Of a stretch of DNA of 32,000 bases, positions 7,252-30,043 are shown in pieces. The position numbers and the translations under genes are program-made. Positions within the stretch are counted from its first letter, which is position 1. Each line of letters opens with the position of its first letter. The notes under the pieces are model-generated. The model saw nothing but the letters and a program-made list of their open reading frames with translations, ran no database searches and was not told the DNA's origin. This DNA is from Geotalea uraniireducens Rf4. Its GTDB lineage: Bacteria; Desulfobacterota; Desulfuromonadia; Geobacterales; Geobacteraceae. The stretch spans positions 2,700,001 to 2,732,000 of the forward strand of contig NC_009483.1 in NCBI RefSeq assembly GCF_000016745.1, in the 5' to 3' direction.

Positions 7252-7255
7252 TGCG

Positions 7256-11026: not shown

Positions 11027-11048
11027 GGTGAACTCCGAACTCAAAGCA

Positions 11049-12086: not shown

Positions 12087-12096
12087 CTTCTCCCGC

Positions 12097-13068: not shown

Positions 13069-13129
13069 ATCCACACTCCCATTTGAACGGCCCCGGATCT
13101 TTTCCACAAAACAGGTCCGCTATTCGCTC

Positions 13130-14236: not shown

Positions 14237-14261
14237 AAGAATCCCTCTGAAGAGCAATCTT

Positions 14262-15149: not shown

Positions 15150-15167
15150 TTTCTCACTAATCTCCTC

Positions 15168-16146: not shown

Positions 16147-19071
16147 TCAGTACCTGGTAACCCTCAAGGTAGTTCTTTTGGTCACGCCGCCATAAGCAGC
16201 AGAAATGGTGACCGATGTGGATCTGGTCACCCGAGTGGTGGTAATCGTGAACGTTGCGCTGGTGCTGCCACCCGCTATCGTTACATTGGCAGGCACACCG
16301 GCTGCTGACGAATTATCGCTTAACGACACTACCACACCGCCACTCGGCGCAGGACTGCTCAACCTCACCGTGCCCCTGGAAGTGGCTCCGCCCCTGACAC
16401 TTGTTGGGCTTACCGAAAGCGCACTCAATACCGGCCGCGCAACCGTCAGCGTGGCTGTTCTCGTCACCCCCCCATAGCTGGCAGAAATGGTTACAGGAGT
16501 CGAGCCGGCCACCGGCGTGGTGGTAATCGTAAATATGGCGCTGGTGCTGCCACTCGGTATCGTCACGCTGGCAGGAACACCTGCTGCTGACGAATTGTCG
16601 CTTAACGACACCGACACACCGCCACTCGGTGCAGGACCGCTCAATCCCACCGTGCCCCGGGAAGTAGCCCCGCCTGCAACACTACTTGGGTTAAGCGAAA
16701 GCGAACTCAATGCTACTGTAGGCAAAACAGTAATAGTGACAGTTGCGACATTACTATTAATTGTTCCATTGTTCGCCATGTAGGTAAAACTGTCGTTCCC
16801 CGCATAGTTCGCAGCCGGTGTATAGGTGAAAGCTCCGTTGGTATTGAGGGTGAGGGTGCCATGGGATGGGCCGCTCACCAGTTGCGCCGTCAGGATCGCT
16901 CCCTGGGGATCGGTATCGTTGCCCAGCACTCCCGGGACAGCCTGATTCAGGGTCGTATTTGCGTTGGTGCTGTACGTATCATTCACCGCTACGGGGGTTG
17001 CCGACACCGAATACTGTATTTGGACAGTTGAAACTGAAGCACCTATCCGAACTTTTGCGCCATAGTTGGTGGTTCTATAATCCGCGGGATTAGCCGGTGT
17101 TCCATCAAGAAACACCTGCATATTCCCGATAGTCTCAGATGATCCCCTGGGAAGAACTATTTCAATGGCAGTGTCTGCGTCCGTAACTCCGAATACCGAT
17201 GCCGTCACGATGGAGGTGTTACCGGACCTTGTGAAATTGGGAGTCACATTTACCTTCGAGCGTAAAAGCCACCAGTCGTAGATCCCTACGGCATTGGTGG
17301 ACCACAATTTGGGCTTCGACATGCTATAACTCACGTACTCTTGTTCCAACCCTCCGCTGTTAGAAGGTGCATGTCCGTAGTAATTGAGCAACAATCCGCC
17401 GATGTCATAGTAGAAATCAACCGCTGCCCTTATGGAATCAGTAGTGTGACCCCATTCAAGGGCTTGAGGGATTTCAGTGCCGACAAACCAGTCGCTCGTC
17501 GGCTGCGAAACGTGAGAATAAATACGCTTGCCGGGTTTCTTATACGAGAGCGTGAAGTGCGGAAAGGGGCCGATTTTTTGTTCGCCCATGGTGATCGAGC
17601 CTAATTGCTCCAGGATATCGTAGGAATCTTCACGGGTGGAATTGAAGTATGGTGAAGCCCAGGTCCTTGGGCACGTCCCGGTTGCACCGCAACCGGGACG
17701 GCCGTTGTCGATCCCGGCCAGCCAGCCTTCGATATCCTTGAAAGAAGCCAGAATAGAAGCGGAAGCATAGGCCTTGCCGTTCGCGTAACCCGGCGGACTT
17801 TGGTCCAGCGCTTCGTCCGGCCCCCAGTGCCAGTAATCATGATCAGATGGTTGCAGGGAGGGGTTTCCGGGGTTCTTAAGACCGCCGTTGTGCGACCCGA
17901 TTGTAGCCCCGTAGTAAGACACGGCGTCCCGAAGGCTGGAGATTATCGTGGCACGATCCGATCCCGTATAGGTGCGTAGCGCACCTGTACTGAAATAGTA
18001 CTCGCCTACAGCCCCGATGGAATGTTCAAACTGGGCCGAGGATTTGATAGTTTTTATCAGGTCAATATATTCCTCAAAATCGTGGCGAACAACTAAAGCC
18101 GCGTCGTACGGATATCGCCATGGACTAAGCTTAACGATCGGAAGGGTGAAAGATTCGAAGGCCCACTCGATGGCCCTGCGATAGACGAGATAAGCATACA
18201 TGCTTGGGTCGATCATTCCGTGGCCGATGAGTGGTTGAATTGCTCCATGGTAGATAAACTGTCCTTGTCCGTAATTCTTAACCGTCAGAAGCGGACCTGA
18301 ATCACCATTTGCAACAACCGTAGCACCATTGGCAACAACCGACCATGTCCAGTGCTTGCCATGAATTACGTGGGCAGGTGAATTACCCCAGGGAATCTCC
18401 TCTGAGGTCAAGGGGGCGTTCCAAACGAGTGTACCACTTGGGATATGACTGGTCAGCCGATGGTCGGTAGTCTTGGTGAAATGCTTGTTCCCATACCAGT
18501 TCCAATTGTTGGATTCAGTCTGGTTGGAATTGGCCATGTGCAATCCCATTTCTCCGGCCAGGGCAAAATCACCACGGTTAGTGCCATCGGGATAACGTGT
18601 AAAGGCCGATGAGCCGACGAACACGAAGCCTCCTGCGCTGACATAATTGCGGAGCGGAGAAATCTCGTAATCGGCTATCGCTTCAGAAGCCAGGCTGATC
18701 AGAATCGGGTAGCGCGGCGAGCCATCAGGGTTAAGCAATTTGCCGGCAGCGATATCACTATCGCTTACCTCGACAAATGGTGTGCCATCCGAACTAAGCG
18801 CCTCTTTAAATGATTCATATGCAACGAAATAGTGCCATGAAGTATACCACCACTGGTAACCGGAAAACCCGGTCCCTGTAGGTGTCGGTGGGACAGCAGG
18901 TGTTGTTTCGAGTGCATGGGTGAACTCGGAGATGTGGATGGCGACGAAAGGCTCGGGAGGTGTTGAACCTTGCTGCGCAATCGCCTGATATGGAGCTGCT
19001 GAAACGGCTACGATGAGAAGGCACACTACTGGGAAAATATATCTAAACGACCTGAACAATATTTTTTCCAT
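16147..19071 (-). CDS. Secreted 974-aa multidomain protein: signal peptide, large enzyme-like core, cadherin/Ig-like domain, two 94-aa tandem Ig-like repeats
   Basis: - Signal peptide: MEKILFRSFRYIFPVVCLLIVAVSAAPYQAIAQ.
- Core (about aa 320-560) has deacetylase/glycosidase-like strings (ALVVRHDFEE, GSHNGG, NYYGH); this assignment is weak.
- aa 691-786: VAVNDTYST...GVLGNDTDPQG...FTYTPAANYAGNDSFTY, a cadherin-like Ig domain.
- aa 787-880 and 881-974 are about 75 percent identical repeats.
- There is no PEP-CTERM tail; the protein ends ...TLRVTRY. Confidence 0.85.
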   Translation of the reverse strand: MEKILFRSFRYIFPVVCLLIVAVSAAPYQAIAQQGSTPPEPFVAIHISEFTHALETTPAVPPTPTGTGFSGYQWWYTSWHYFVAYESFKEALSSDGTPFVEVSDSDIAAGKLLNPDGSPRYPILISLASEAIADYEISPLRNYVSAGGFVFVGSSAFTRYPDGTNRGDFALAGEMGLHMANSNQTESNNWNWYGNKHFTKTTDHRLTSHIPSGTLVWNAPLTSEEIPWGNSPAHVIHGKHWTWSVVANGATVVANGDSGPLLTVKNYGQGQFIYHGAIQPLIGHGMIDPSMYAYLVYRRAIEWAFESFTLPIVKLSPWRYPYDAALVVRHDFEEYIDLIKTIKSSAQFEHSIGAVGEYYFSTGALRTYTGSDRATIISSLRDAVSYYGATIGSHNGGLKNPGNPSLQPSDHDYWHWGPDEALDQSPPGYANGKAYASASILASFKDIEGWLAGIDNGRPGCGATGTCPRTWASPYFNSTREDSYDILEQLGSITMGEQKIGPFPHFTLSYKKPGKRIYSHVSQPTSDWFVGTEIPQALEWGHTTDSIRAAVDFYYDIGGLLLNYYGHAPSNSGGLEQEYVSYSMSKPKLWSTNAVGIYDWWLLRSKVNVTPNFTRSGNTSIVTASVFGVTDADTAIEIVLPRGSSETIGNMQVFLDGTPANPADYRTTNYGAKVRIGASVSTVQIQYSVSATPVAVNDTYSTNANTTLNQAVPGVLGNDTDPQGAILTAQLVSGPSHGTLTLNTNGAFTYTPAANYAGNDSFTYMANNGTINSNVATVTITVLPTVALSSLSLNPSSVAGGATSRGTVGLSGPAPSGGVSVSLSDNSSAAGVPASVTIPSGSTSAIFTITTTPVAGSTPVTISASYGGVTRTATLTVARPVLSALSVSPTSVRGGATSRGTVRLSSPAPSGGVVVSLSDNSSAAGVPANVTIAGGSTSATFTITTTRVTRSTSVTISAAYGGVTKRTTLRVTRY
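16150..16713 (-). repeat. In-frame tandem duplication, 2 x 282 bp (2 x 94 codons)
   Basis: The units 16150-16431 and 16432-16713 encode VLSALSVSPTSVRGGATSRGTVRLSSPAPSGGVVVSLSDNSSAAGVPANVTI... and ALSSLSLNPSSVAGGATSRGTVGLSGPAPSGGVSVSLSDNSSAAGVPASVTI.... The mirrored + ORFs 16205.. and 16487.. are offset by exactly 282 nt. Confidence 0.9.
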
Positions 19072-19333: not shown

Positions 19334-19433
19334 TATTGCTTCAGTAATTACACATGCAAGTCCTTATAGGGGCGAATGATTGGGCGAGGCAAGTCTCGCT
19401 CCTGCGTTGATATGTTTAATCACCGGAGCAATA
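19334..19433. repeat. Nested palindromic REP/MITE-like element, copy B
   Basis: The arms tattgcttcagtaattacacat (19334-19355) and atgtttaatcaccggagcaata (19412-19433) are about 18 of 22 complementary. The interior gattgggcgaggcaagtctcgctcctgcg matches copy A but lacks the 22-bp central palindrome. The element overlaps the last 22 codons and the stop of the aminotransferase gene. Confidence 0.7.
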
Positions 19434-20635
19434 GCAACATGACTTGACAACCTTTCTTCAGCCTCAAGACCATATACGACTGCCAGCCGCATTATCTGAC
19501 AGATTTTTCTTATCTCATCCGGACCGACAGCAGTACCGGCAGGAAGAGAAAGCACACGGTTTGCGAGTCTCTCGGTTTCAGGCAACACCAGTCTTGCATG
19601 GGGAAAGTAGGAACGGTAAGGTTCCATCCTGTGACAGCCCGGATAGAAGTAACGCCGCGCCAGAACATTTTCTGCACGGAGAATGTCCACTATCTGATCC
19701 CGGGTCACGTGCGTAATGGATTCGTCGATTTCAAGAACGACGTATTGATAGTTGCACTTCTCCCTCTGATCATAATTGATGAGGGTGACTCCCGCCAAGT
19801 CTCTGAGTTCCTGTTCATAGCATCTGTAATTCCCGAAGTTCACTGCAATAAATTCATCTATACTTTCGAGATTCGTCAATCCCATCAGCGCAGAGAATTC
19901 GTTCATCTTCCCATTTGTCCCGATATAGATGACGTTGTCATATCCTGAGAACCCGAAATTCTTCATCAGGCGAATTTTGCCGGCCAGGTCATCGTCATTT
20001 GTGGCTATTGCTCCCCCCTCGCAGGTATTAAAGAATTTTGTTGCATGAAAGCTGAAGACCTCTGCGCTTCCGAAGCTGCCGATCATCCTCCCTTTGTACG
20101 AACAGCCAAAGCCATGGGCGGCATCAAACAGCAGTTTTAAACGATGTGAAGCTGCGATTTCTTCCAGTGCTTCGATATCGCATGGGCGGCCCCAGAGATG
20201 CACACCTATGATACCGGTCGTCCGGGGCGTGATCATCTTTTCTATGCAGGATGGGTCAATCGTGTGTGTTTTGGGATCGATATCGCAGAAAACCGGGGTA
20301 ATCTCCTGCCATTGCAGCGCATGCGCGGTAGCAACGAAGGTGAAAGAAGGGAGAATGACTTCGCCTTTCAACTCGAGAGAACGGATAGCAATTTCCAAAG
20401 CAACAGTACCGTTGCACATGGAAATACAGTTCTTGACGCCGATCATGTCGGAAATCCGCCGTTCGAATTCCTGCACATAAGGCCCATTATTGCTGAGCCA
20501 CTTTCTATCCAGCATGTCATTGATGCGCTTAAGCAATCGCTCCCGGTCCCCAAGATTGGGACGTCCGACATGGAGTGTTTCTTGAAAAGTGGGAGTTCCG
20601 CCAAATATAGCCAGATCATCGATATTCTCTTTCAT
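19364..20635 (-). CDS. DegT/DnrJ/EryC1/StrS-family PLP aminotransferase
   Basis: 423-aa ORF. LAIFGGTPTF...NNGPYVQEFERR...MCNGTVALEIA...FSFHATKFFNTCEGG (PLP lysine). GGAGG lies 6 nt upstream of ATG 20635. The C-terminal 22 aa (IAPVIKHINAGARLASPNHSPL) are encoded by repeat copy B. Confidence 0.85.
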   Translation of the reverse strand: MKENIDDLAIFGGTPTFQETLHVGRPNLGDRERLLKRINDMLDRKWLSNNGPYVQEFERRISDMIGVKNCISMCNGTVALEIAIRSLELKGEVILPSFTFVATAHALQWQEITPVFCDIDPKTHTIDPSCIEKMITPRTTGIIGVHLWGRPCDIEALEEIAASHRLKLLFDAAHGFGCSYKGRMIGSFGSAEVFSFHATKFFNTCEGGAIATNDDDLAGKIRLMKNFGFSGYDNVIYIGTNGKMNEFSALMGLTNLESIDEFIAVNFGNYRCYEQELRDLAGVTLINYDQREKCNYQYVVLEIDESITHVTRDQIVDILRAENVLARRYFYPGCHRMEPYRSYFPHARLVLPETERLANRVLSLPAGTAVGPDEIRKICQIMRLAVVYGLEAEERLSSHVAIAPVIKHINAGARLASPNHSPL

Positions 20636-20641
20636 CTGATA

Positions 20642-20646
20642 CCTCC
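20642..20646 (-). promoter_or_regulatory. Shine-Dalgarno (GGAGG) for the aminotransferase gene
   Basis: Plus-strand cctcc at 20642-20646, with a 6-nt spacer to ATG 20635..20633. Confidence 0.6.
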
Positions 20647-20732
20647 GATCACCAGAGAATCTTTTGCGAACAACGGCTCATATGCGTGCTGAAACTATCA
20701 CTAATATCCGATACGGTTAACCATCCGATCTC

Positions 20733-22358
20733 TCAAACACTATCCTCTTGACTGTGGCGATAATTCCCGGCGCAGATCCCCGCCAAGGTTTTTCTATCTA
20801 TCTTTCCCGATGATGTCATCGGCAGAGAATCCCGAAACTCCATAATCTCAGGCATCATATATTTGGGTAATCGCGTAGCACAATGCCTGACAACATCCTC
20901 TTTTCCGACCGTGCGGTTACTCATGGGAACGATAACGGCGACAATCCTGTTCCCGACAAGCTCGTCCGGAATTGGAAGCACCACGGCGGCCATGATCTCC
21001 GGATGGCTTGACAGCACAGTTTCTATCTCTTCAAGCTCGATACGGTAACCTCGACTTTTCACCATGTTGTCTTTGCGGCCGGAAAAAACATAATTGCCAT
21101 GCCCGTCGATCCGGACAAGATCACCTGTCTTGTAGACGATTTTCCGGGAAACGGGATACCGTGGGTCAGGCACGAACTTATCACCGGTCATCCATTCCTC
21201 TCCCCAGTACCCAAGGGCAACGGTGGAACTGCCGACGTACAGTTCCCCGTCCTCCCCCACCCGGCTGATGACTTCCCCGGCGTCATTCAGAGCAAAGACT
21301 TCAAAGTTCGGGAACGGCCTGCCGATGGGGATGCGCCATGCGTCATCGTCGGGTAACTCCCCGATGGGATAAAACATTGAGGAATTCGCTTCAGTCTGGC
21401 CGTAAATATTAAAGAATGATGCATTGCCCATATGTTTTGTTAATACACGCAGATACTTTGCAGGCATGATATCGCCGGAAAAATGAACGATGCGCAGAGC
21501 GTCGAAGCTGTGCCGTTCCAGCATTCCCTTGTCTGCAAGCATGGTTAAAACTGAAGAGACCGAATTCCAGATGGTGATTTGTTCTTTAGCTATAAATTCA
21601 CTCAACTTCACAGGAAATGTCGACAACAACTCGGGAAGCAGCACAATTGCCGCCCCGCATTTCACTGCAACGAATATGTCAAACACCGAGAGATCGAAAT
21701 GCAACGGCGCGTGATTACAGAACCTGTCCGTCTCGCTTATCTTAAAAAACCTTGCTGCCATTTCAACAAAGGTAAGCGCATTCAGATGAGATATGGCAAC
21801 GCCTTTCGGATTCCCGGTAGAACCGGATGTATGAAGTATGTATGCCGGGCTGCTGTCGGACATCTCTACGGATTGAAATTCGGAATCGCCGTTGTCGGAT
21901 ACCTGGTAAAATGGCAGACATTCGGCAAGAATATTCAGATGCCTTGACTCATCATGATCTTTTCCAACTACTATTGCCTTCGTAACAGACATTTGTTCCT
22001 CTGAATCTGATAATAATGTGTTCAAATTCGGAGATGATGCAATCAGACATTCAATGCCGCAGTGTTTGATAATATATGTAATCCTGTTAACCGGTGCAGA
22101 AGGGTCGATCGGTACATATATTGCCCCGGACTTCAGTATCCCAAAGAGAGATACGATCGTCTCGATCGATTTGGAAAGCATTATGCCGACACGATCACCC
22201 TTTTTTATTCCCGACTGCTGAAGTTTCCGGGCCAGATCATTGCTCTGTTGTTCCAGTTCGGAATAGGTTACGGATTTTTCCTTAAAGACGACGGCCACGT
22301 TATCAGGATATTTCCTGGCGCTGTGTTCCAATAAATGTTGAAGCAGATAGCCGCACAT
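20733..22358 (-). CDS. Stand-alone adenylation enzyme (ANL superfamily, DltA/NRPS A-domain-like)
   Basis: 541-aa ORF with the A-domain core motifs in order: SYSELEQQSNDLARKL (A1), LKSGAIYVPIDP (A2), AYILHTSGSTGNPKGV (A3), FDLSVFD (A4), NIYGQTE (A5), GELYVGSSTVALGYWG (A6), YKTGDLV (A7), GRKDNMVKSRGYRIELEEIE (A8), LPKYMMP (A9) and LPMTSSGKIDRK (A10). There is no fused carrier or condensation domain. Confidence 0.9.
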   Translation of the reverse strand: MCGYLLQHLLEHSARKYPDNVAVVFKEKSVTYSELEQQSNDLARKLQQSGIKKGDRVGIMLSKSIETIVSLFGILKSGAIYVPIDPSAPVNRITYIIKHCGIECLIASSPNLNTLLSDSEEQMSVTKAIVVGKDHDESRHLNILAECLPFYQVSDNGDSEFQSVEMSDSSPAYILHTSGSTGNPKGVAISHLNALTFVEMAARFFKISETDRFCNHAPLHFDLSVFDIFVAVKCGAAIVLLPELLSTFPVKLSEFIAKEQITIWNSVSSVLTMLADKGMLERHSFDALRIVHFSGDIMPAKYLRVLTKHMGNASFFNIYGQTEANSSMFYPIGELPDDDAWRIPIGRPFPNFEVFALNDAGEVISRVGEDGELYVGSSTVALGYWGEEWMTGDKFVPDPRYPVSRKIVYKTGDLVRIDGHGNYVFSGRKDNMVKSRGYRIELEEIETVLSSHPEIMAAVVLPIPDELVGNRIVAVIVPMSNRTVGKEDVVRHCATRLPKYMMPEIMEFRDSLPMTSSGKIDRKTLAGICAGNYRHSQEDSV

Positions 22359-22378
22359 CTCATTTCTCCATCAATGTA

Positions 22379-23524
22379 TTAAAGCCCGAGAAGACTCGCT
22401 ATGACATTTTTTTGAATTTCGGATGTACCTGAATAGATCTTTCCTGCTATGGAATCCCGCAAGTTTCTTTCAAAATCCATTTCTGCAGAATAACCGTAGG
22501 CACCGTGTATCTGCAGAGCTTCCATGCAATTTTCCACATAACTTTCACTGACAAATAGTTTGGCAATTGCAGATTCGACAGGCGCCCGTTGCCCCTGTGC
22601 CTTCAACCATGCGACTTTGTAAAGGACAAGTCTTGACAGTTCGAGCCTGACTTGCATGTCTGCGATTTTATGGGATATGGCCTGGTATTTGCCGATAGGC
22701 TTTTCGAACTGATGCCTGTCATTCACATAACGGATACATTCTTCAAGATCTCTTCCCATGGCCCCTACGTGGGTAGCAAACAAGCAACTCCTCTCCCATT
22801 CCATTTCTGAATTGAAGATGGCGGCACCTGCGCCTTCTTTCCCCAGCCTGTTCTCTTCCGGGACTTCGCAATCCTGGAGAATAACCTCTCCGAGCGGGCA
22901 GGTCTTCAACCCCATCATATCAAGGGGTTTTCCTACCGAAAATCCGGGGAAGCCTTTTTCAACGATAAAGGTCGAGATCCCGGCAAAACCTTTTTTTGCA
23001 TCCGTGACCGCAAACACCAAAAGGATGTCTGCTATAGGCGCATTTGTAATAAACATCTTTGTCCCGTTGATAATATATCGATCACCTTTTTTTTCGGCTT
23101 TGCACTTCATGCTGAATGCATCGGAACCGGAATCCGGCTCCGTCATGGCATGACCCCCCTTGAGCGAACCATTGCAAAGACCCGGCAAATATTTTTTCTT
23201 TTGATAATCGGTGCCGAATTTAAGTATCGGGGACTCGCAAGTCCAGATATGTGAGTTGATGGCAAACAAAAGACCGCTGTCCCTGCAGCCATAGCCAAGT
23301 CCTTCCATGGTGGCAACGCATGTCAAAATGTCCACGCCGAGACCACCGTACTCTTCCGGTATGGGAAGTCTCTGTATTCCAAATTCGGCGCACTTTTCCC
23401 AGCCATCCTGGTTGAATTCACAGTTCCTTTCGCGTTCTTTGGCACCTTTATTGAGTGCCTTCTCCGCAAATTCGATGGCCGAGTTTTTAAAGGTCAGCTG
23501 GTCTTCAGTGAATGAAAAATCCAT
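22379..23524 (-). CDS. Acyl-CoA dehydrogenase-family flavoprotein
   Basis: 381-aa ORF. FTEDQLTFKNSAIEFAEK...IPEEYGGLG...GGHAMTEPDSGSDAFSM...INGTKMFITNAP...IHGAYGYSAEMDFERNLRDSIAGKIYSGTSEIQKNVIA. This is typical ACAD architecture. Confidence 0.9.
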   Translation of the reverse strand: MDFSFTEDQLTFKNSAIEFAEKALNKGAKERERNCEFNQDGWEKCAEFGIQRLPIPEEYGGLGVDILTCVATMEGLGYGCRDSGLLFAINSHIWTCESPILKFGTDYQKKKYLPGLCNGSLKGGHAMTEPDSGSDAFSMKCKAEKKGDRYIINGTKMFITNAPIADILLVFAVTDAKKGFAGISTFIVEKGFPGFSVGKPLDMMGLKTCPLGEVILQDCEVPEENRLGKEGAGAAIFNSEMEWERSCLFATHVGAMGRDLEECIRYVNDRHQFEKPIGKYQAISHKIADMQVRLELSRLVLYKVAWLKAQGQRAPVESAIAKLFVSESYVENCMEALQIHGAYGYSAEMDFERNLRDSIAGKIYSGTSEIQKNVIASLLGL

Positions 23525-23531
23525 GGTCTTT

Positions 23532-23720
23532 TTATCCTATTTTCAGGTTCATCCGGGAATTCCGGGGAAGGCCGCCTGCCGCGACTTCGTCCGTTCGTTC
23601 GGTCGCCGCAGCTGCGGACCTTGCACCGTCTCCAATGTAATTGCCTGAATATTCGTTTGCTGACGAAGCTGCTTCTTTCAATCTCGGGCGGGTGTCCGCT
23701 TGCCGCTTCGGCTCTGTCAT
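23532..23720 (-). CDS. Hypothetical 62-codon ORF filling the ureohydrolase-ACAD spacer (coding status uncertain)
   Basis: The ATG at 23720..23718 overlaps the TGA of the upstream gene (ATGA). The stop TAA at 23534..23532 lies 7 nt before the ACAD ATG. The product MTEPKRQADTRPRLKEAASSANEYSGNYIGDGARSAAAATERTDEVAAGGLPRNSRMNLKIG is hydrophilic, low in complexity and has no recognisable motif. The region is GC-rich, so long ORFs can arise by chance. Confidence 0.25.
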   Translation of the reverse strand: MTEPKRQADTRPRLKEAASSANEYSGNYIGDGARSAAAATERTDEVAAGGLPRNSRMNLKIG

Positions 23721-24742
23721 TCACTCCCGAAGCCACGGCAGCCGTCACCGGAAATGTCGGAAGAACCTTTTTTTACCGAGGCCATTCCTGAAAGTGCATA
23801 AATAAGCGCCCATGAAGCCAGATGTGAAGAAAAACCATGGGGGTCCTGATTTGGATAAACTTCAACATAATCGAGGCCTGCTATGCCGGATGCTCCGATC
23901 CTCTGCAGGGAAGGAAGCAGTTCGTGAGGCATCAGGCCGTTGAAATCGGCCGGTCCCCCCGGATTGAAGCCCGCATCTATGCAATCGCTGCATATGGTAA
24001 CGAGGACATATTTCGTATCCTGATGAGCAATGTCGATCGCCTCGCTGATAACGTCATCGATACCGCGCTTTCTGATTTCATTGATGGCAAAAATTCTTGC
24101 CCCCATGCTTTGGGCATACGCAAACTGTGAAGACGAGTTTCTCGGCCCCCTGATCCCTATATGTACTATGCTCCTGGTTCTTACCTTTTCAATTTGGGCA
24201 ATCCTGTGAATCGGACCGCACCGCGGGAATTTATCTCCACCAAAAGCCCTTGAATTATCTAAGTGAGCGTCAAAGTGGATCACGCCGATATTCCCGTCGA
24301 TATTGTCGCTCAAGGCCCTGATTATCTCGGGGGTGAAGGAATGATCGCCACCCAGTACGAAAGGAATACTATGGTTTTCATATACTTTCCCCATCGTCTC
24401 ATACACGTTTTTCATGGTGGCCAGTTCATCGTTCGGATTTACCGGAACATCCCCGATGTCCCCTATTTTCAGATAATCGAAAAGATCCAGTTCATATTCC
24501 GGCAAAAATCCCCCATATCGTGCAGAAGCATGCCTTATCGTTTTCGGAGACAGTTCACAACCGCTGAAGGTGCCCCACGTCACCGTTCCTTCCCAAGGCA
24601 CACCGGCAACTATGACGTCATACCCATTTACAAGCGCTTTCGAATCGAGCACCGTCGTTCCCAGAAATGAGGGAGTATCCCCGTACACCTTCGGCAGGGA
24701 AGCCTTTCTGTCAGCTACCATAGGAATATCTTTGGGTGTCAT
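23717..24742 (-). CDS. Arginase/agmatinase/formiminoglutamase-family ureohydrolase
   Basis: 341-aa ORF. Family motifs GGDHSFT, IHFDAHLDN, ICSDCIDAGFNPGG and GLDYVEVYPNQD. The N-terminus TPSFLGT...DVIVAGVPWEGTVTWGTFSGCELSPKTIRHAS is agmatinase-like. AGGAGG lies 5 nt upstream of the ATG. Confidence 0.85.
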   Translation of the reverse strand: MTPKDIPMVADRKASLPKVYGDTPSFLGTTVLDSKALVNGYDVIVAGVPWEGTVTWGTFSGCELSPKTIRHASARYGGFLPEYELDLFDYLKIGDIGDVPVNPNDELATMKNVYETMGKVYENHSIPFVLGGDHSFTPEIIRALSDNIDGNIGVIHFDAHLDNSRAFGGDKFPRCGPIHRIAQIEKVRTRSIVHIGIRGPRNSSSQFAYAQSMGARIFAINEIRKRGIDDVISEAIDIAHQDTKYVLVTICSDCIDAGFNPGGPADFNGLMPHELLPSLQRIGASGIAGLDYVEVYPNQDPHGFSSHLASWALIYALSGMASVKKGSSDISGDGCRGFGSE

Positions 24743-24747
24743 TATTT

Positions 24748-24753
24748 CCTCCT
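24748..24753 (-). promoter_or_regulatory. Shine-Dalgarno (AGGAGG) for the ureohydrolase gene
   Basis: Plus-strand cctcct at 24748-24753, with a 5-nt spacer to ATG 24742..24740. Confidence 0.6.
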
Positions 24754-24786
24754 TTCGACAATGAGGCCATGGCTTGTACTACAAAC

Positions 24787-25044
24787 TCAAACTGCCTGGT
24801 TCTGCATTTGCTGTTCGACAAGCTTGACCATGCTATTAAGGCATTGAAAGTTCTCGGGGATTATCTCCTCGTCAATTATCTTTATGTCGAAGGTCTTCTC
24901 CATAAAAGCTATCAACTTCATGAGTCCCAGCGAATCGATAATCCCCTGTTCGAGAAGATCTTCATCAGGTTCCAGCGACGTTTTACCAAGACCGACGGCA
25001 ATTTCGGCAAGCAAAACTTTTTCAAGTTCCTCTAAAATCCTCAT
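24787..25044 (-). CDS. Small carrier protein (ACP/PCP, DltC-like)
   Basis: This is the last 85 codons of track ORF 24787..25470: MRILEELEKVLLAEIAVGLGKTSLEPDEDLLEQGIIDSLGLMKLIAFMEKTFDIKIIDEE..., with the phosphopantetheine-attachment DSL motif. GGAGG lies 8 nt upstream of ATG 25044. The upstream part of the track ORF overlaps the GNAT gene out of frame. Confidence 0.85.
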   Translation of the reverse strand: MRILEELEKVLLAEIAVGLGKTSLEPDEDLLEQGIIDSLGLMKLIAFMEKTFDIKIIDEEIIPENFQCLNSMVKLVEQQMQNQAV

Positions 25045-25052
25045 CTGAATAC

Positions 25053-25057
25053 CCTCC
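25053..25057 (-). promoter_or_regulatory. Shine-Dalgarno (GGAGG) for the carrier-protein gene
   Basis: Plus-strand cctcc at 25053-25057, with an 8-nt spacer to ATG 25044..25042. Confidence 0.6.
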
Positions 25058-25078
25058 TCTTTAATCGGATTCGATAAC

Positions 25079-25969
25079 CTACACACCTTCGGGAAATATC
25101 CCGAATGCTTCAATATGTTGGCCGGGACGCCATGCCCCTCGTACCATAAGATTGTCCAGGCAATAGACTTTAAAACCGAATCCCATAAGTGTCTTGACGA
25201 GCAGATAATCCCTGGCCATAACACGCGTTTGACAGTCTCGTTCTTTGAAAACTGCTGATGCATGTTGAAACAGGCACCCCGCTTCCTCTTCTCCTTCGGC
25301 GAGCAAGGGACCAAGCTGCACCGATCCTGAACCGGGAAGACACGCCAGAAATCCACGAATCTGCGATTGATCTCGATAAACAAAAACCTTGCCCCACTTG
25401 ACATAATATGCGAGGTCTTTTCGGCGATCCGACTTGCTTCTTGGACTATCGTACGTATGAACAGCATCAAGATCCTTTGCCGTTAATTCGGTTACATTGC
25501 TGCATGGATCCAACCGCTGCCCCGCTCCTCCATCCAGAAATAAATCCAGCAGGCTTGCCACCGGCAAAAAATTGAACGAATAAAACAAAGAAAAGGATGC
25601 AGGATTGAACGCCTCCTGGATCAGTCTGAGACTTTGCAGGTTTTCCGCTCTTTTTAGAAGAGCATCCATCAACTGACTGCCGATACGATAACCTTGAAAA
25701 TATGGATTAACGACAACAGGCCCAACGCCTCCAAGATTGCCCCTTGGATTCAGGCAACATATTCCCGCAATACGGTTTTCCACCTCGGCAATCAGAAGTT
25801 CATTCGAACCATAGTGCAGCATGGACCAAGCCCAGGACTTTCCCGTCTCTACCCGTTGCATTTTCCGGGCATACCCGTGTTTCGCTGCACCGGCATTGAA
25901 TGATTCGTAAAGAATTTCCCCCACCCGGTCCGTATCAGCTTGAGTCATATTCCGTATTTGGGCTTTCAC
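25079..25969 (-). CDS. GNAT-family N-acyltransferase (two-lobed, 296 aa)
   Basis: The N-terminal lobe has the GNAT motif-A-like VVVNPYFQGYRIGSQLMDALLKRAE. The C-terminal lobe is a second alpha/beta region. The start is GTG 25969, with GGAGG 5 nt upstream. ATG 25948 is an alternative. Confidence 0.75.
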   Translation of the reverse strand: MKAQIRNMTQADTDRVGEILYESFNAGAAKHGYARKMQRVETGKSWAWSMLHYGSNELLIAEVENRIAGICCLNPRGNLGGVGPVVVNPYFQGYRIGSQLMDALLKRAENLQSLRLIQEAFNPASFSLFYSFNFLPVASLLDLFLDGGAGQRLDPCSNVTELTAKDLDAVHTYDSPRSKSDRRKDLAYYVKWGKVFVYRDQSQIRGFLACLPGSGSVQLGPLLAEGEEEAGCLFQHASAVFKERDCQTRVMARDYLLVKTLMGFGFKVYCLDNLMVRGAWRPGQHIEAFGIFPEGV

Positions 25970-25974
25970 CTTAA

Positions 25975-25979
25975 CCTCC
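25975..25979 (-). promoter_or_regulatory. Shine-Dalgarno (GGAGG) for the GNAT gene
   Basis: Plus-strand cctcc at 25975-25979, with a 5-nt spacer to GTG 25969..25967. Confidence 0.55.
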
Positions 25980-26012
25980 CTACGGCCGCAAATTGATTGT
26001 CGTCAGTACTAC

Positions 26013-26741
26013 TTACTTCCCGCTTTCTTGCGACCCGGTGCCCATCCCGGGGTTATGCGATTTCACAGACCACGTCAGCCATGTACTCAGTTCATTACTG
26101 GGTTTAGGCAGTAATTCAGCCGCTCTATTGATGTATACCCCCTTTTCCCGGGTATCCGCAGTTATTGAAACGCCGGCGCCGATTATACATTCTCTGGCAA
26201 CAATGACCCCTCCATCCCTGATGGTCGAGTTAGCCCCGATCAAGCAATACGGCTCTATGGTAGCGGAACCTAAAATAACCGCATGAGGGGCGACGAAACA
26301 GTGGTCCTTGATGACGGAGTGATGCCCGATCAGGCTGCCGGCCCCTATGAATACGTTATTCCCGATCTCGGCAAAAGGACAAATGACACTATTCTCGGCG
26401 ATGTAACAATTATCACCGATGACCAACCCGGGCCAGGTAACGGCCTTCGGATTGACGTAACTTATCAACTCATATCCCTTTGCTTTCGCCTGATCATATT
26501 TTTCCGCCCGTAACCTGTTCAGCTTTCTGTAGCTGATGAGAAGAGACATCTTGTACTCGTTTGGTGGATATATTGATTCGATATTCTCGAAAGGGACAAC
26601 CGGTAGTCCCAAAAGCCTGTCTTCTTTGATGTATGCCCGGTCTACGGTGAACGCAGCAACCTCATACGGGGAACTGTGGGTCAGATAGATGTAATTCATT
26701 TCCGCCTCTTGACCATTGCCAAATATAATTACTCTATCCAT
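26013..26741 (-). CDS. NeuD/PglD-type sugar N/O-acyltransferase (left-handed beta-helix, hexapeptide repeats)
   Basis: 242-aa ORF. N-terminal Rossmann-like VIIFGNGQEAEMNYIYL, then hexapeptide repeats IGDNCYIAENSVICPFAEIGNNVFIGAGSLIGHHSVIKDHCFVAPHAVILGSATIEPYCLIGANSTIRDGGVI. Confidence 0.85.
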   Translation of the reverse strand: MDRVIIFGNGQEAEMNYIYLTHSSPYEVAAFTVDRAYIKEDRLLGLPVVPFENIESIYPPNEYKMSLLISYRKLNRLRAEKYDQAKAKGYELISYVNPKAVTWPGLVIGDNCYIAENSVICPFAEIGNNVFIGAGSLIGHHSVIKDHCFVAPHAVILGSATIEPYCLIGANSTIRDGGVIVARECIIGAGVSITADTREKGVYINRAAELLPKPSNELSTWLTWSVKSHNPGMGTGSQESGK

Positions 26742-26770
26742 GGTAATCCCTTCCTCCGACTGCGAAAGTT

Positions 26771-27703
26771 CTACGCGAACTCTCCTTTTCGATAGGCCGG
26801 AAAATAATCGGTAGTTGTCATACCCTTGGCTTTTACGATCTGCGCATATCGTTCAGGGTCGAAGATCCGGCCGCAAAAATAGGCAGTCCGTGTCCCGGTT
26901 GACCAGCCGCGCTTGAATCGGGTCAGGCCATCAGTACCATCGCCACCGATGCCGGCGCCGGCCCCGAGTTCCAGCCACCGCAGACCGTTGTCGGCAAAAT
27001 ACTTCAAGGCGAAAGAGAACAGTGCAAACGATGCATGCAATTCGAGTCCACGGGGACTGGTGCTGCCCAAATGGTAATAAGCCACATCGCCATGCACATA
27101 CCACAACAGCATCCCAAGGGTCTTATCATCAGATACCGCCCGGAACATTACCAACCCGGGCACGGACAACTGTTTGGCGAATGATTCTTTTGAGAATGCC
27201 GTTATCCCTTTGATACCGTGTCTCAGAATCAATTCCTGATAAAGCGCTGCCCATTCATCTATAAAGTCGATTGGCTCCTCGCACAGCTCTACGGTTACAT
27301 GTTGAAGGCTTTTTCGTATATACCGTCGATGATGTTCTGATACATGGTTATCCGTCTGCTGATTGAGATCGACTACGAAATGCTCCTTAAACGGAACGAC
27401 ATGCTCAAAGCATCGATTCAAATAGTCTCTGTCATACTCACCAAAGGGGTCTGTCACCAGCGCCAGACTTACCAGCTCGATTTCGAGAGTTTCCAGATCC
27501 GAATGAAGCTGATACCAATCCTGACAGACAAACAGAGGGTAACAGCACATTGCATCGCGGTCGGTTAAACCCGGTATGGGGCGCTCCAACACCCACCCCT
27601 TGCATCGAAGGAGTTCTCGTGGTGTGCCGAATTCCGACAACGATTCTGCGTAGCAGGGATGCATGTATCCGGTCACTCTCTCAACTCCCCTCGCAATAGT
27701 CAT
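26771..27703 (-). CDS. FemAB-like / Acetyltransf_6-type GNAT-fold acyl(aminoacyl)transferase
   Basis: 310-aa ORF. C-terminal region VMFRAVSDDKTLGMLLWYVHGDVAYYHLGSTSPRGLELHASFALFSFALKYFADNGLRWLELGAGAG...GLTRFKRGWSTG, the pattern of FemAB/CelD-like acyltransferases. The family call is by eye only. Confidence 0.6.
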   Translation of the reverse strand: MTIARGVERVTGYMHPCYAESLSEFGTPRELLRCKGWVLERPIPGLTDRDAMCCYPLFVCQDWYQLHSDLETLEIELVSLALVTDPFGEYDRDYLNRCFEHVVPFKEHFVVDLNQQTDNHVSEHHRRYIRKSLQHVTVELCEEPIDFIDEWAALYQELILRHGIKGITAFSKESFAKQLSVPGLVMFRAVSDDKTLGMLLWYVHGDVAYYHLGSTSPRGLELHASFALFSFALKYFADNGLRWLELGAGAGIGGDGTDGLTRFKRGWSTGTRTAYFCGRIFDPERYAQIVKAKGMTTTDYFPAYRKGEFA

Positions 27704-27733
27704 AAGCTATCCAATGCGATTACGACGATGCTT

Positions 27734-28999
27734 TTAATCGCTGAATCCACCAAGGTATTCCATTTTCCATTCCAGCACGGGTTGCACAACGCCCGGCTCT
27801 TTGCCGTACCAGACGCCCTGTCTTTCTCTCACATCGAATATGTCGAACGACACCCGGCTTTCATGGCTGTAGATGACGGAGCTTCCATCTTTTACAACCA
27901 GCACGACAAACCGGTGTGAACCGCTATTCAGCAAGTCGCCGGGGAAATAGCATACGTTGCGATACAAACCGGTTGCCAAGGGACGATTGTTCAGGTTGCA
28001 CGTAGTAAACGCAATGATCCCTTCTGCGGTATAAAGGTGCAGGGTTGTATGCAAATGCGTATCGGCTGCCAGATTCCAGTATTCCACTTCCACCTGAAAC
28101 GGCGTCTGCATCGTCAGGGGGTCCGACAGGCAGCCGTCCTGACGCCGCAATCGCACCCGGTGGAGCCGCACCATATCGTTACCGGGTGCATCATTTACGT
28201 CATTCCAAACCTCTTCGGACAAATCCATGCCCTTCACTGATGTTGCCAGATACCTTGTCACAATCTGTGCAGTTGGTCCGTCTTCGACGATCTTGCCGCC
28301 GTTCACCCATATCACCCGCTTGCACAGGCTATTTACGGCAGTCATATTGTGACTTATCAATAGCACCGTCCGCCCGTCCCTTGCGGCATCACCTATCTTA
28401 TCCAGACACTTTTTCTGGAAAGCGGCGTCACCTACTGACAGGACTTCATCCACCAGGAGGATCTCCGGCTCAAGATGAGCAGCCACAGCGAAGCCCAAGC
28501 GCACATACATGCCACTGGAGTAACGCTTCACGGGCATGTCGAGAAACTCACCGACCTCGGCAAACTCGACTATTGCGTCGAAACGGCGGCGAATTTCCTC
28601 CTTCTTCATACCTATGATGGCGCCGTTAAGGTAAATATTTTCCCTGCCGGTCAGTTCAGGGTGGAAGCCGGTGCCCACTTCCAGCAGGGAACCGACTCGT
28701 CCGAAAATCTCGGCCCGGCCGTCAGTAGGCACCGTAATCCGGGAAATTACTTTTAATAGCGTGCTTTTTCCGGCTCCATTCTGCCCGATGATACCGACAA
28801 TCTCACCCTGCCTGACCTCAAAGGAAACATCTTTCAAAGCCCAGAATGTTCTCTCAGCCAGATGGGATCGACCCTTGCGGAGAAAGACAGACTTCAGGCC
28901 ATCAGCAAGCTGATCACATAGGGTATCGTAACGATATTTCGCCGTTGCGATATTGTATCGTTTGGACAGGTTTTCGGCTCGAATCGTAATATCGCTCAT
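27734..28999 (-). CDS. wzt: ABC transporter ATP-binding protein, polysaccharide export (Wzt/TagH type) with C-terminal extension
   Basis: 421-aa ORF. Walker A GIIGQNGAGKSTLLK, signature YSSGMYVRLGFA, Walker B ILLVDEVLSVGD and H-loop LLISHN. About 170 further residues follow the NBD and are rich in beta-strand pattern (Wzt_C-like). Confidence 0.9.
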   Translation of the reverse strand: MSDITIRAENLSKRYNIATAKYRYDTLCDQLADGLKSVFLRKGRSHLAERTFWALKDVSFEVRQGEIVGIIGQNGAGKSTLLKVISRITVPTDGRAEIFGRVGSLLEVGTGFHPELTGRENIYLNGAIIGMKKEEIRRRFDAIVEFAEVGEFLDMPVKRYSSGMYVRLGFAVAAHLEPEILLVDEVLSVGDAAFQKKCLDKIGDAARDGRTVLLISHNMTAVNSLCKRVIWVNGGKIVEDGPTAQIVTRYLATSVKGMDLSEEVWNDVNDAPGNDMVRLHRVRLRRQDGCLSDPLTMQTPFQVEVEYWNLAADTHLHTTLHLYTAEGIIAFTTCNLNNRPLATGLYRNVCYFPGDLLNSGSHRFVVLVVKDGSSVIYSHESRVSFDIFDVRERQGVWYGKEPGVVQPVLEWKMEYLGGFSD

Positions 29000-29060
29000 A
29001 AAGTATTCCCGGAACAGCTGCGCCTTTCAGGGCAGAAACTAAGGGACTTGGTAATTATCA

Positions 29061-29165
29061 ATATACCACGTAGGGGCGACAGCACGGCTTCATCGTGCTT
29101 CGCCCTTGTTCGCAACGCCAACAAAGGCGGGCGAAGCTTCGCCCCTACAATCAAAAACGGTATAT
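29061..29165. repeat. Nested palindromic REP/MITE-like element, copy C (related core, different arms)
   Basis: - Outer arms atatacc...ggtatat, with gtaggggcga (29070-29079) paired to tcgcccctac (29139-29148).
- Inner hairpins ggggcgacagcacg-gcttcat-cgtgcttcgccc and ttgtt-cgcaacgcc-aacaa.
- A perfect 16-bp palindrome gggcgaagcttcgccc.
- It shares the gtaggggc/gcccctac bracket with copy A. Confidence 0.6.
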
Positions 29166-29182
29166 CAGGAAATTCTATGTCC

Positions 29183-30043
29183 CTAAATAACATCAGCAAA
29201 AGTCTGCTCCATCCGTTTAAAGTAAACAATTCCACCTGCCAATAACGCCAATACGACGGATGAGCTCACTGCCATCAACATAAAATCCGGGCTTTCCTTT
29301 CCCAGGAGAGCCCAACGAAAACCTTCTATCACCCCGACCATCGGGTTCAGACTGTAGAGCAGTCTCCACTTCACCGGAACCATGCTTACAGGGTATGCTA
29401 CAGGTGATGCGTACATCCAGACCTGGCTTAAGAACAGGATAATATTGCCCACATCCCGATATCTCACGTTAAGTGCAGAGGTCCAAAGTCCCACGGCCAG
29501 AGCTGTCATTATTGCAAGGCCCAGAAAAAGAGGCAGAGCCAACAGACCCCACGTGGGCGCAATGTTGAACCAAGCCATCAGAACCAGGAGAACCAGGAAC
29601 GAGAAGAATAAATCGACCACGGGTGAAACCGAAGCGGCCAGGGGAATCAATAATCGAGGGAAATATATTTTCGTAACCAGGTTGGAGCTGTTGACAACGC
29701 TGCTTGAGCTCTTTGCCAAAGCTTGAGAAAAGTATGACCATGGAAGCAAAGCGCTGAAAGCGAAAACAGGATATGGTATCCCATCCGAGGGAATCTTGGC
29801 GAAGTTGCCGAAAATCAGGGTAAATATCAACATGGTGATCAGAGGCTGCAAGATCACCCAAGCGGCTCCAAGCGCCGTCTGCTTATAACGTACTATCACA
29901 TCCCGCCAAACCAGGAAGTAAAGCATTTCACGATATTGCCAGACACTTGTCAGATCAAGCTGAAACAGTCCCTTGCGAGGCTGGATTACCACTGAAGGCT
30001 TTCTTGATGTATTTCCTGCCGCTAAGTCCATATTGCGCACCAT
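29183..30043 (-). CDS. wzm: ABC-2 type transporter permease, polysaccharide export (Wzm/TagG type)
   Basis: 286-aa ORF with six predicted TM helices. The N-terminus WQYREMLYFLVWRDVIVRYKQTALGAAWVILQPLITMLIFTLIFG and the segment NLVTKIYFPRLLIP are hallmark ABC-2 strings. ATG 30031 is an alternative start. Confidence 0.85.
   Translation of the reverse strand: MVRNMDLAAGNTSRKPSVVIQPRKGLFQLDLTSVWQYREMLYFLVWRDVIVRYKQTALGAAWVILQPLITMLIFTLIFGNFAKIPSDGIPYPVFAFSALLPWSYFSQALAKSSSSVVNSSNLVTKIYFPRLLIPLAASVSPVVDLFFSFLVLLVLMAWFNIAPTWGLLALPLFLGLAIMTALAVGLWTSALNVRYRDVGNIILFLSQVWMYASPVAYPVSMVPVKWRLLYSLNPMVGVIEGFRWALLGKESPDFMLMAVSSSVVLALLAGGIVYFKRMEQTFADVI

Follow-up and report, generated by a model that had tools for sequence, protein, structure and literature searches.

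A conserved carrier-protein module with an arginase-fold ureohydrolase, predicted to build a glycan decoration in Geotalea uraniireducens Rf4 and its relatives

Geotalea uraniireducens Rf4 is a cultivable uranium- and iron-reducing bacterium. We analyzed a 32,000-nucleotide stretch of its genome (NC_009483.1, positions 2,700,001 to 2,732,000; hereafter the window, whose own numbering is used throughout), with the focus on eight open reading frames (ORFs) at 20733-27703, all on the minus strand and spaced by -4 to 97 bases. Four of them, encoding a stand-alone adenylation enzyme, a carrier protein, a flavoenzyme of the acyl-CoA dehydrogenase (ACAD) fold and an arginase-fold ureohydrolase, constitute an invariant functional unit found in all ten independent loci compared. 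Sequence comparisons indicate, with a probability of roughly three in four, that this carrier-protein module makes an aminoacyl-derived decoration for an amino sugar of a glycan. The narrower proposal that the decoration derives from arginine is tentative, and we put its odds somewhat below even. The module represents a large, coherent and unstudied family with a distinctive combination of enzymes.

Domains were assigned by Pfam and NCBIfam profile searches, and bit scores are quoted against the curated cut-off of each model. All eight ORFs were found at the coordinates given in the initial annotation, made from the sequence alone, and its inventory was correct apart from one ORF of 62 amino acids (aa). 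Two window proteins, the FemX-fold transferase and the adenylation enzyme, share 100% identity with proteins of G. uraniireducens Rf4. The genes of the four-gene unit in the window are as follows:

20733-22358, minus strand: stand-alone amino-acid adenylation enzyme, type II A domain (AMP-binding and AMP-binding_C; TIGR01733)
22379-23524, minus strand: ACAD-fold flavoenzyme of the prolyl-carrier-protein dehydrogenase family (three ACAD domains)
23717-24742, minus strand: arginase-fold ureohydrolase (PF00491, E 4e-64)
24787-25044, minus strand: 85-aa carrier protein (PP-binding, PF00550)

A four-gene unit in ten independent loci

Besides the window, the loci designated L003, L005, L006, L008, L009, L010, L012, L017 and L018 were compared. 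The genes for the adenylation enzyme, carrier, ACAD and ureohydrolase were present in the same order in each of the ten, with identities across the loci of 52-57% for the adenylation enzyme, 69-79% for the ACAD, 64-87% for the ureohydrolase and 32-67% for the carrier. The neighborhood check proposed in the initial annotation thus demonstrated both co-occurrence and synteny of the four genes (10/10 loci). The core keeps its order across phyla while all the surroundings change, and its recurrence in independent genomes and metagenomes places the arrangement far beyond chance. The eight genes of the block had been taken for one functional unit; only these four were invariant, the transferase slot varied, and a pair of genes for a FemX-fold transferase and a DegT aminotransferase proved separable.

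Database relatives of the module number more than 100 and come from Geobacterales, Nitrospirota and Syntrophia. The cassette had been presented as a novelty, and a full-text literature search found no published description of this gene set; the module is widespread, however, and the implied rarity had to be given up. In most of the sampled independent loci it lies among genes for glycosyltransferases, DegT aminotransferases and Wzx/Wzy or Wzm/Wzt proteins. The gene beside the carrier codes for a 212-aa GNAT-like protein in six loci and for a 297-aa left-handed beta-helix (LbH) protein in Geobacter sp. AOG1. Occasional accessories comprise S-adenosylmethionine (SAM) methyltransferases, class-B B12 radical-SAM enzymes, an Sfp-type phosphopantetheinyl transferase and a protein of the HDAC family. 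No recurrent precursor-supply enzyme was detected near the module in the compared loci, which points to a primary metabolite as the substrate.

L017 is the closest large-contig relative of the window. Apart from the gene beside the carrier, it is syntenic, with genes for an XrtA deacetylase, Wzm, Wzt, the FemX-fold protein, the LbH protein, carrier, ureohydrolase, ACAD, adenylation enzyme, DegT and a 975-aa secreted protein. A sister cassette in L019 (7119-16912) has the same frame, namely Wzm, Wzt, a FemX-fold protein (64% identity) and an LbH protein (60%), followed by a carrier, an ACAD (58%), an adenylation enzyme (50%) with the specificity code DMFNLAMTSK, and DegT. It is devoid of the ureohydrolase; in its place there are genes for an FkbH-domain protein of 612 aa, for another carrier and for two proteins with no family match (219 and 403 aa). 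This suggests that the trio of adenylation enzyme, carrier and ACAD is a recurring glycan-tailoring device, of which the ureohydrolase marks one sub-type.

Two of the loci showed additional genes. In L008 (3526-17219), an Sfp-type phosphopantetheinyl transferase and a methyltransferase are encoded directly upstream of the carrier, and a GNAT-carrier fusion (755 aa) and a protein similar to nonribosomal peptide synthetases (NRPS), with the serine-type code DVWHISLVDK, are encoded downstream. In L006 (17236-19959), homologues of ComA (phosphosulfolactate synthase) and ComB (2-phosphosulfolactate phosphatase) follow the module, which hints at a sulfonated substituent in the polysaccharide of that locus.

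Specificity and ancestry of the module enzymes

The assignment of the adenylation enzyme to the amino-acid and not the fatty-acid class was upheld. The stand-alone protein passes the amino-acid adenylation model TIGR01733 (365 bits versus a cut-off of 317) and fails all CoA-ligase equivalog models of NCBIfam. The D of FD (222) and the K of SSGK (519) align with Asp235 and Lys517 of PheA, and since both are kept, the substrate should be an alpha-amino (or imino) acid. On the model scores and the presence of Asp235, the reading as a fatty-acid ligase was rejected. The best full-length solved relative is the proline ligase PltF (6o6e, E 7e-88), and the nearest plasmid-borne relatives, 39-40% identical, lie in trios of ACAD, adenylation enzyme and carrier. 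Some orthologues are labelled L-proline ligase by the Joint Genome Institute (JGI), others "amino acid adenylation domain-containing protein".

The ten specificity residues were read by alignment to a PheA fragment; the fragment yields the canonical DAWTIAAICK, which validates the register. The code DLFNHSISSK was found in the window enzyme and in 109 of its 120 best homologues (53-100% identity), variation among these 120 being confined to positions 236, 299 (His to Ile or Leu), 301 and 322. The proline-type relatives in L014-L016 carry DLFYLALVCK or DLLYLALVCK, from which the window code differs at six of ten positions. Tyr278, Leu299, Val330 and Cys331 of the proline code are replaced by Asn, His, Ser and Ser, respectively, and these replacements should deepen the pocket and render it polar. 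Strict conservation of the code against an overall identity of only about 55% speaks for a specific, non-proline substrate. By sequence, the enzyme is a descendant of proline-activating enzymes with a remodelled pocket, and its substrate is probably not proline. The prolyl-carrier precedent invoked in the initial annotation holds for the ACAD family and for the ancestry of the adenylation enzyme and probably does not extend to proline as the substrate.

Glutamate, citrulline, histidine, cysteine-like substrates and pyroglutamate were also weighed for the neutral polar pocket; none of them accounts for the ureohydrolase, and they were kept as unlikely. The variant code DLFNLSLSSK differs only at positions 330 and 331 from the cysteine code.

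The flavoenzyme was placed, in line with the precedent named in the initial annotation, in the prolyl-carrier-protein dehydrogenase family. Its top solved relatives in the PDB, AnaB (4irn, E 4e-131), Bmp3 (6cxt) and PigA (5zw0), are all carrier-protein proline oxidases, with identities of 49% to AnaB and 40-41% to Bmp3 and PigA. The score of 441 bits to AnaB compares with at most 286 bits to catabolic ACADs, butyryl- and isovaleryl-CoA dehydrogenases being more than 150 bits behind. The named NCBIfam models gave 455 bits for PigA (cut-off 500) and 417 for RedW (cut-off 650). Identity reaches 50-51% to ACADs encoded beside proline-code adenylation enzymes in S. clavuligerus and on Microvirga replicons, and 46% to that of Brasilonema. 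The catalytic Glu244, in the motif MEWER, is conserved with AnaB, Bmp3 and PigA. In prolyl ACADs this residue is the base that takes the C2 proton from the prolyl thioester (PMC11177257). Glu240 and His252 are among nine residues that all ten module enzymes share and that six proline-type enzymes lack. Glu240 lies one helical turn before Glu244 and His252 two turns after it, and by this periodicity both side chains are predicted to face the substrate.

The ureohydrolase scores 217 bits with PF00491 (cut-off 22) and keeps all six ligands of the binuclear metal center (H134, D158, H160, D162, D253 and D256). It falls below every named equivalog, with 120.8 bits versus 229 for HutG, 114.1 versus 174.3 and 118.4 versus 302 for agmatinase, and 63.7 versus 227.6 for arginase. 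Its solved relatives, a guanidine hydrolase-type "agmatinase 2", formimidoylglutamase and guanidinopropionase, are matched only at about E 1e-31 to 1e-33; public annotation calls its homologues "agmatinase family protein" or "guanidinopropionase". A homologue search returned 4477 matches at E <=1e-20, and the best 120 of these 4477, all at least 63% identical, come from Geomonas (at least eight species), Geobacter, Nitrospirota, Smithella and other deltaproteobacterial assemblies. The six ligands and the constant presence of the enzyme in the module make the suggested de-amidination of the substrate a fair inference. A distant relative in an Oscillospiraceae locus (L013, 39%) has a MerR-type regulator adjacent and no module, and the locus was set aside as uninformative.

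The carrier matches PF00550 (28.6 bits versus 20.8), with the phosphopantetheine attachment site at Ser38 in a DSL motif. Its best model is AmcB (55.7 bits, below the cut-off), and DltC gave 31.6 bits versus 68; the earlier description as a DltC-like carrier of 85 aa is accordingly right about the carrier, while "DltC-like" is to be read in a generic sense only.

Predicted transferases, acceptor sugar and the surrounding locus

The remaining features of the block and its flanks are as follows:

19364-20635, minus strand: DegT-family pyridoxal phosphate (PLP) aminotransferase, DesI/VioA-like (PF01041, E 3e-110)
23532-23720, minus strand: 62-aa ORF, probably a non-coding spacer (no family match)
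25079-25969, minus strand: tandem-GNAT N-acyltransferase, 296 aa (Acetyltransf_1 PF00583 and Acetyltransf_18 PF18014)
26013-26741, minus strand: NeuD/PglD/VioB-type LbH sugar N-acyltransferase (hexapeptide repeats; TIGR03570)
26771-27703, minus strand: FemX/MprF-fold tandem-GNAT transferase, Gura_2357 (Acetyltransf_6 PF13480 and predicted fold)
27734-28999, minus strand: Wzt-type ATPase of an ATP-binding cassette (ABC) exporter (PF00005)
29183-30043, minus strand: Wzm-type ABC-2 permease (Wzm/RfbD and KpsM models)

All genes of the minus-strand run 19364-30043 are co-directional, with spacings of -4 to 183 bases; in the window lineage, the gaps from DegT to Wzt are 20-97 bases. The DegT and Wzt/Wzm flanks reported earlier were both recovered.

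The 296-aa GNAT gave neither an NCBIfam match nor a sequence match in the PDB. In L017 the slot beside the carrier, occupied by this tandem GNAT in the window, holds an ArnA/Fmt-type formyltransferase (Formyl_trans_N/C). A formyltransferase can only cap an amine, so the GNAT in the same slot is most simply seen as a capping enzyme too, probably one for small acyl groups. The LbH enzyme scores 144 bits with TIGR03570 (NeuD/PglB/VioB; cut-off 160.8) over residues 4-204 of 242, and matches QdtC, PerB, PglD, VioB and the acyl-ACP-using LpxD (ACP, acyl carrier protein) in the PDB at E 1e-7 to 1e-11. It aligns with PerB over the full length and with PglD, QdtC and VioB only in the LbH region; its orthologues in L017 and L019 are 59-60% identical. 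For the transfer of the acyl group (or acetyl) to a nucleotide amino sugar, the LbH protein is the best candidate.

The likely acceptor is a product of the DegT aminotransferase, which scores 546 bits with the DesI model TIGR04427 (cut-off 650) and has a 76% identical orthologue at the same position in L017. DesI is a dTDP-4-dehydro-6-deoxyglucose aminotransferase. The DegT enzyme is predicted to make a dTDP-4-amino-4,6-dideoxyhexose.

The transferase described before as FemAB-like was confirmed as such at the level of fold. The protein matches PF13480 (39 bits versus 22), and its AlphaFold model, built on an alignment of 34 sequences, reached a predicted local distance difference test (pLDDT) of 87.4 and a predicted template-modelling score (pTM) of 0.86. 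Foldseek aligned it with FemX at TM scores of 0.64-0.70 (7z6a, E 8e-13, TM 0.70), followed by Sba18/Sbb17, MprF and FemA. No NCBIfam model matched 26771-27703, so the protein does not belong to TIGR03019 (cut-off 260 bits). Sba18 and Sbb17 are tRNA-dependent enzymes solved with the amino sugar streptothrisamine, and FemX-fold enzymes are thus known to aminoacylate an amino sugar. Locus L021 (1599-11278) contains Wzm, Wzt, two tandem FemX-fold genes, a DesI-like DegT and two sulfotransferases, and no carrier module. This composition suggests that the FemX-fold/DegT pair is an independent unit, most likely for the tRNA-dependent aminoacylation of an amino sugar. By this analogy the FemX-fold transferase of the window probably uses aminoacyl-tRNA and is separate from the carrier chemistry.

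The best models of Wzt are galactan Wzt/RfbE and TagH and those of Wzm are Wzm/RfbD and KpsM, all below the equivalog cut-offs. Wzt is 77% identical to its L017 counterpart and 60% to that of L021 over the full length, and Wzm is 80% identical to the ABC2_membrane gene of L017. The two genes adjoin the biosynthetic genes, and the pair is kept in L017, L019 and L021. A C-terminal extension of Wzt of about 170 aa, with no Pfam match, is kept in L017 and L021, whereas the Wzt of L019 is short and lacks it. The extension may serve to bind the glycan terminus, a role known from other O-antigen exporters of the ABC type.

The 62-aa ORF, which had been flagged as a possible gene, was rejected. It has no Pfam, NCBIfam or Rfam match and no tblastn counterpart in any related locus, and promoter and terminator signals in its stretch did not exceed those expected from shuffled sequence. 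The ureohydrolase and ACAD genes of several relatives (L006, L012 and L017) directly adjoin or overlap each other, and the ORF is probably a spacer.

The block is embedded in a genuine XrtA exosortase locus. The exosortase (8983-9816) scores 223.7 bits with a cut-off of 208, and its locus partners EpsI, TIGR03019 FemAB, TIGR03006 deacetylase and TIGR03016 outer-membrane protein are all present in the window. Contrary to what had been implied, the module itself is not tied to such a locus: Wzx/Wzy-type loci carry it as well, and in Geomonas it stands apart from glycan loci altogether. A second DegT aminotransferase adjoins the XrtA-associated TIGR03019 FemAB (11049-12086, 403.5 bits versus 260) at 9839-12086; this pair lies directly upstream of the carrier module in most other loci, while glycosyltransferase genes intervene in the window. 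At 16147-19071 there is a gene for a 974-aa secreted protein with a tandem-95 repeat and two near-identical Ser/Thr-rich C-terminal modules. In L017 a counterpart that is 63% identical from end to end also lies directly downstream of DegT, and given this conservation the protein may be functionally linked to the glycan. The G+C content drops to 0.39-0.46 over the glycosyltransferase genes (7001-8000 and 12001-16000) compared with 0.49-0.60 elsewhere, which suggests horizontally exchanged, serotype-specific genes inside the exosortase locus. Finally, a 467-aa ORF with a GTG start (742-2145) overlaps an ATP-grasp gene (1914-3128) over about 230 bases, and its translation probably begins further on, where the glycosyltransferase-like part starts.

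Proposed chemistry, rival readings and known systems

An intact ureohydrolase calls for a substrate with a guanidino or amidino group, and no enzyme of precursor supply recurs beside the module. Among the guanidino amino acids arginine is the common one, and our best guess for the starting compound is therefore arginine or a close analogue. The adenylation enzyme would load a long, polar guanidino alpha-amino acid, likeliest L-arginine, as a thioester on Ser38 of the holo-carrier. The Sfp-type phosphopantetheinyl transferase beside the module in L008 was counted in favor of such a carrier-based reading. The flavoenzyme would then take the C2 proton via Glu244 and oxidize C2-C3 (or C2-N), the kind of reaction that its relatives carry out with prolyl thioesters. 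The ureohydrolase would split off the amidino group in the form of urea, be it on the carrier or once transfer has taken place, and the guanidine retained until then would shield the thioester from attack by the delta-amine. Masking by guanidine against self-cyclization, with late removal by an amidinohydrolase, is documented for marginolactone starters (PMC4737276).

Two outcomes may be envisaged. If the alpha-nitrogen stays free, a 2-imino- or 2-oxo-5-aminopentanoyl unit would close by itself into a delta-1-pyrroline-2-carboxyl group. Proline oxidases handle this very intermediate, which would account for the ancestry of the ACAD. If the GNAT or the formyltransferase caps the alpha-nitrogen first, the product would be a stable N-acyl-dehydro-ornithyl group that keeps a free cationic amine. 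The LbH enzyme (the 212-aa GNAT in other lineages) would deliver the group to the 4-amino function of the DesI-generated dTDP-sugar or, alternatively, to an amino acid first placed on the sugar by the FemX-fold enzyme. The 296-aa GNAT would cap the remaining amine with acetyl, the formyltransferase of L017 with formyl, and the decorated polymer would be exported by Wzm/Wzt. The whole would amount to an oxygen-independent route in anaerobes in which carrier-tethered arginine, a repurposed prolyl-carrier dehydrogenase and a ureohydrolase acting on a carrier- or glycan-bound guanidine yield a cationic dehydro-ornithyl or cyclic pyrroline-carboxamide group on a surface polysaccharide. In this complete form, we regard the route as doubtful.

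Several observations weigh against the proposal. Known codes for Arg, Orn and Lys have an acidic residue at position 239, 278 or 331, and the adenylation enzyme has none at these three positions; His299, moreover, becomes Ile or Leu in some orthologues. The ACAD identities of 49-51% to AnaB and to the proline-code-partnered enzymes keep a proline-like ring substrate plausible. The hosts are anaerobes, and no electron acceptor for the flavin came to light. The Geomonas core stands outside any glycan locus, and the sugar acceptor is deduced from the neighborhood only.

The best-surviving alternative holds that proline or a polar ring analogue is converted to a pyrroline- or pyrrole-2-carboxyl thioester, as happens in anatoxin, pyoluteorin and clorobiocin synthesis, and passed to the sugar, with the ureohydrolase acting on a separate partner (e.g., agmatine or arginine as an acceptor or linker). 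It draws on the three best solved ACAD relatives, all prolyl-carrier dehydrogenases, and on the ACAD identities to the S. clavuligerus, Microvirga and Brasilonema enzymes. Further points in its favor are the code DL(F/L)YLALVCK of the plasmid-borne relatives of the adenylation enzyme, the match to PltF, the JGI label, and the class-B B12 radical-SAM and SAM methyltransferases at some loci. The radical-SAM genes have a parallel in CloN6, which methylates a pyrrolyl-carrier. The proline code is nevertheless broken at 6/10 positions, and the new code is kept across distant taxa. The ureohydrolase, always present and often encoded by a gene abutting that of the ACAD, would be left without a role in building the acyl group, and a pyrrole would offer no amine for capping by the GNAT or formyltransferase. 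Altogether, we consider this route unlikely.

It is improbable that the module is not specific to glycans and instead has a small molecule as its product or a lipid or protein as its target, for instance a PEP-CTERM protein or an amino lipid. This possibility stems from Geomonas oryzisoli (CP076723), where the core of L003 (9043-14426) comprises the carrier, a 212-aa GNAT, the ureohydrolase, a 217-aa CxxCxxCC protein, the ACAD and the adenylation enzyme; housekeeping genes (purine and transport) flank it, no glycan gene is closer than 10 kb, and it has orthologues in at least eight Geomonas species. A radical-SAM gene beside this core belongs to the TIGR03960 family and is probably unrelated. 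In mycobactin synthesis, the ligase/ACP/ACAD/GNAT module mbtK-N likewise acylates an amine that is not part of a sugar. Most of the sampled loci, however, place the module among glycan genes; in the window it sits within one co-directional block from Wzt to DegT, and the sister cassette of L019 shares the Wzm-Wzt ... DegT frame.

That DegT and LbH, which best match the DesI/VioA and NeuD/PglD/VioB families, merely make dTDP-4-acetamido-4,6-dideoxyglucose in the VioA/VioB manner beside an accidental acyl-CoA ligase, acyl-CoA dehydrogenase, ACP and agmatinase (the public annotation of the last being agmatinase or guanidinopropionase) is very improbable in view of the four-gene order held across phyla amid changing surroundings, the amino-acid class of the adenylation enzyme with its failure in the CoA-ligase equivalogs, the bias of the ACAD toward AnaB over catabolic enzymes, and a ureohydrolase under the agmatinase, HutG and arginase cut-offs.

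Should the complete arginine route prove true, it would be a new type of glycan decoration, with the first ureohydrolase to act in the tailoring of carrier-bound groups or glycans, and it would be widely distributed among Geobacterales, Nitrospirota and Syntrophia. The module would carry thiotemplated amino-acid oxidation, hitherto a theme of secondary metabolism, over to glycan tailoring and give the arginase-fold ureohydrolases a new substrate class. The surface polysaccharides of metal-reducing and syntrophic bacteria serve in mineral attachment, cytochrome anchoring and biofilm formation, yet hardly anything is known of their chemistry. For many of the exotic N-acyl and aminoacyl groups on bacterial glycans, no biosynthetic genes have been assigned, and the module is a conserved, compact and tractable candidate for one of them. 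The invariant code also offers a clean annotation marker for genes that at present go, in their hundreds, under the names "agmatinase", "acyl-CoA dehydrogenase" or "proline ligase".

By analogy, the principle has precedents in Dlt, the tetronate genes, the viosamine island, AntD, BtrH/I/J, CloN/CouN and mbtK-N. Carrier-protein tailoring at surface-polymer loci is also represented by the XrtA-associated ligase/ACP/decarboxylase set (TIGR03098 and TIGR03099) and by Dlt. The window adenylation enzyme scores below both TIGR03098 (350 versus 592 bits) and DltA (280 versus 560), and no PLP decarboxylase, MBOAT, DltB- or DltD-like domain was found by Pfam among the ten genes of the block.

Carrier-dependent N-acylation of amino sugars in surface glycans is exemplified by the tetronate genes RfbK-O of V. 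cholerae O1, the flagellin viosamine island of P. syringae, AntD of B. anthracis and BtrH/I/J of butirosin synthesis; the LbH-type VioB and AntD act on dTDP-4-amino-4,6-dideoxyglucose. These systems likewise combine a ligase and an ACP to supply an exotic acyl donor for an aminotransferase-made 4-amino sugar. They differ in using hydroxy acids or gamma-glutamyl-protected 4-amino-2-hydroxybutyrate (AHBA), and none is known to use a flavoenzyme of the prolyl-dehydrogenase type or a ureohydrolase. In clorobiocin and coumermycin synthesis, CloN1-N7 (CouN) build a pyrrolyl-2-carboxyl group on a carrier and move it to the 3-OH of noviose. Here too, an acyl group from an adenylation enzyme/carrier/ACAD trio reaches a deoxysugar, and a B12 radical-SAM methyltransferase is an accessory, as in some of our loci; the acceptor, in contrast, is a hydroxyl of a small-molecule antibiotic, the transferases are CloN2/CloN7, and neither a ureohydrolase nor polysaccharide export is known to be involved. 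The mycobactin set, with the FadD33 ligase, MbtL ACP, MbtN ACAD and MbtK GNAT acting on a fatty acid, follows the logic of ligase, carrier, ACAD and GNAT to an amine that is also seen in the carrier-GNAT212-...-ACAD-adenylation core of most loci. With the MbtN model, however, the window ACAD scores only 50 bits (cut-off 700), and mbt is not known to include a ureohydrolase.

Peptide arginases such as OspR are arginase-fold enzymes that act on ribosomal peptides. DstH and OspR act on finished macrolides and ribosomal peptides, respectively, whereas the ureohydrolase gene of the window is embedded in a carrier module of glycan loci. The marginolactone amidinohydrolase DstH is similar in being an arginase-fold enzyme for a scaffold-bound guanidine, which shields the thioester-bound aminoacyl group from self-cyclization (PMC4737276).

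In the type II prolyl-carrier modules (PltF/PltL/PltE, RedM/RedO/RedW, PigI/PigG/PigA, Bmp and AnaC/AnaD/AnaB of anatoxin-a), an adenylation enzyme likewise stands alone and works with a carrier some 85 aa long and an ACAD with the same catalytic Glu. Unlike them, the window set has the code DLFNHSISSK, an obligatory ureohydrolase, and Glu240 and His252 in the ACAD. The prolyl-carrier modules reside in polyketide synthase (PKS) and NRPS clusters, whereas the module described here belongs to the glycan loci of anaerobes.

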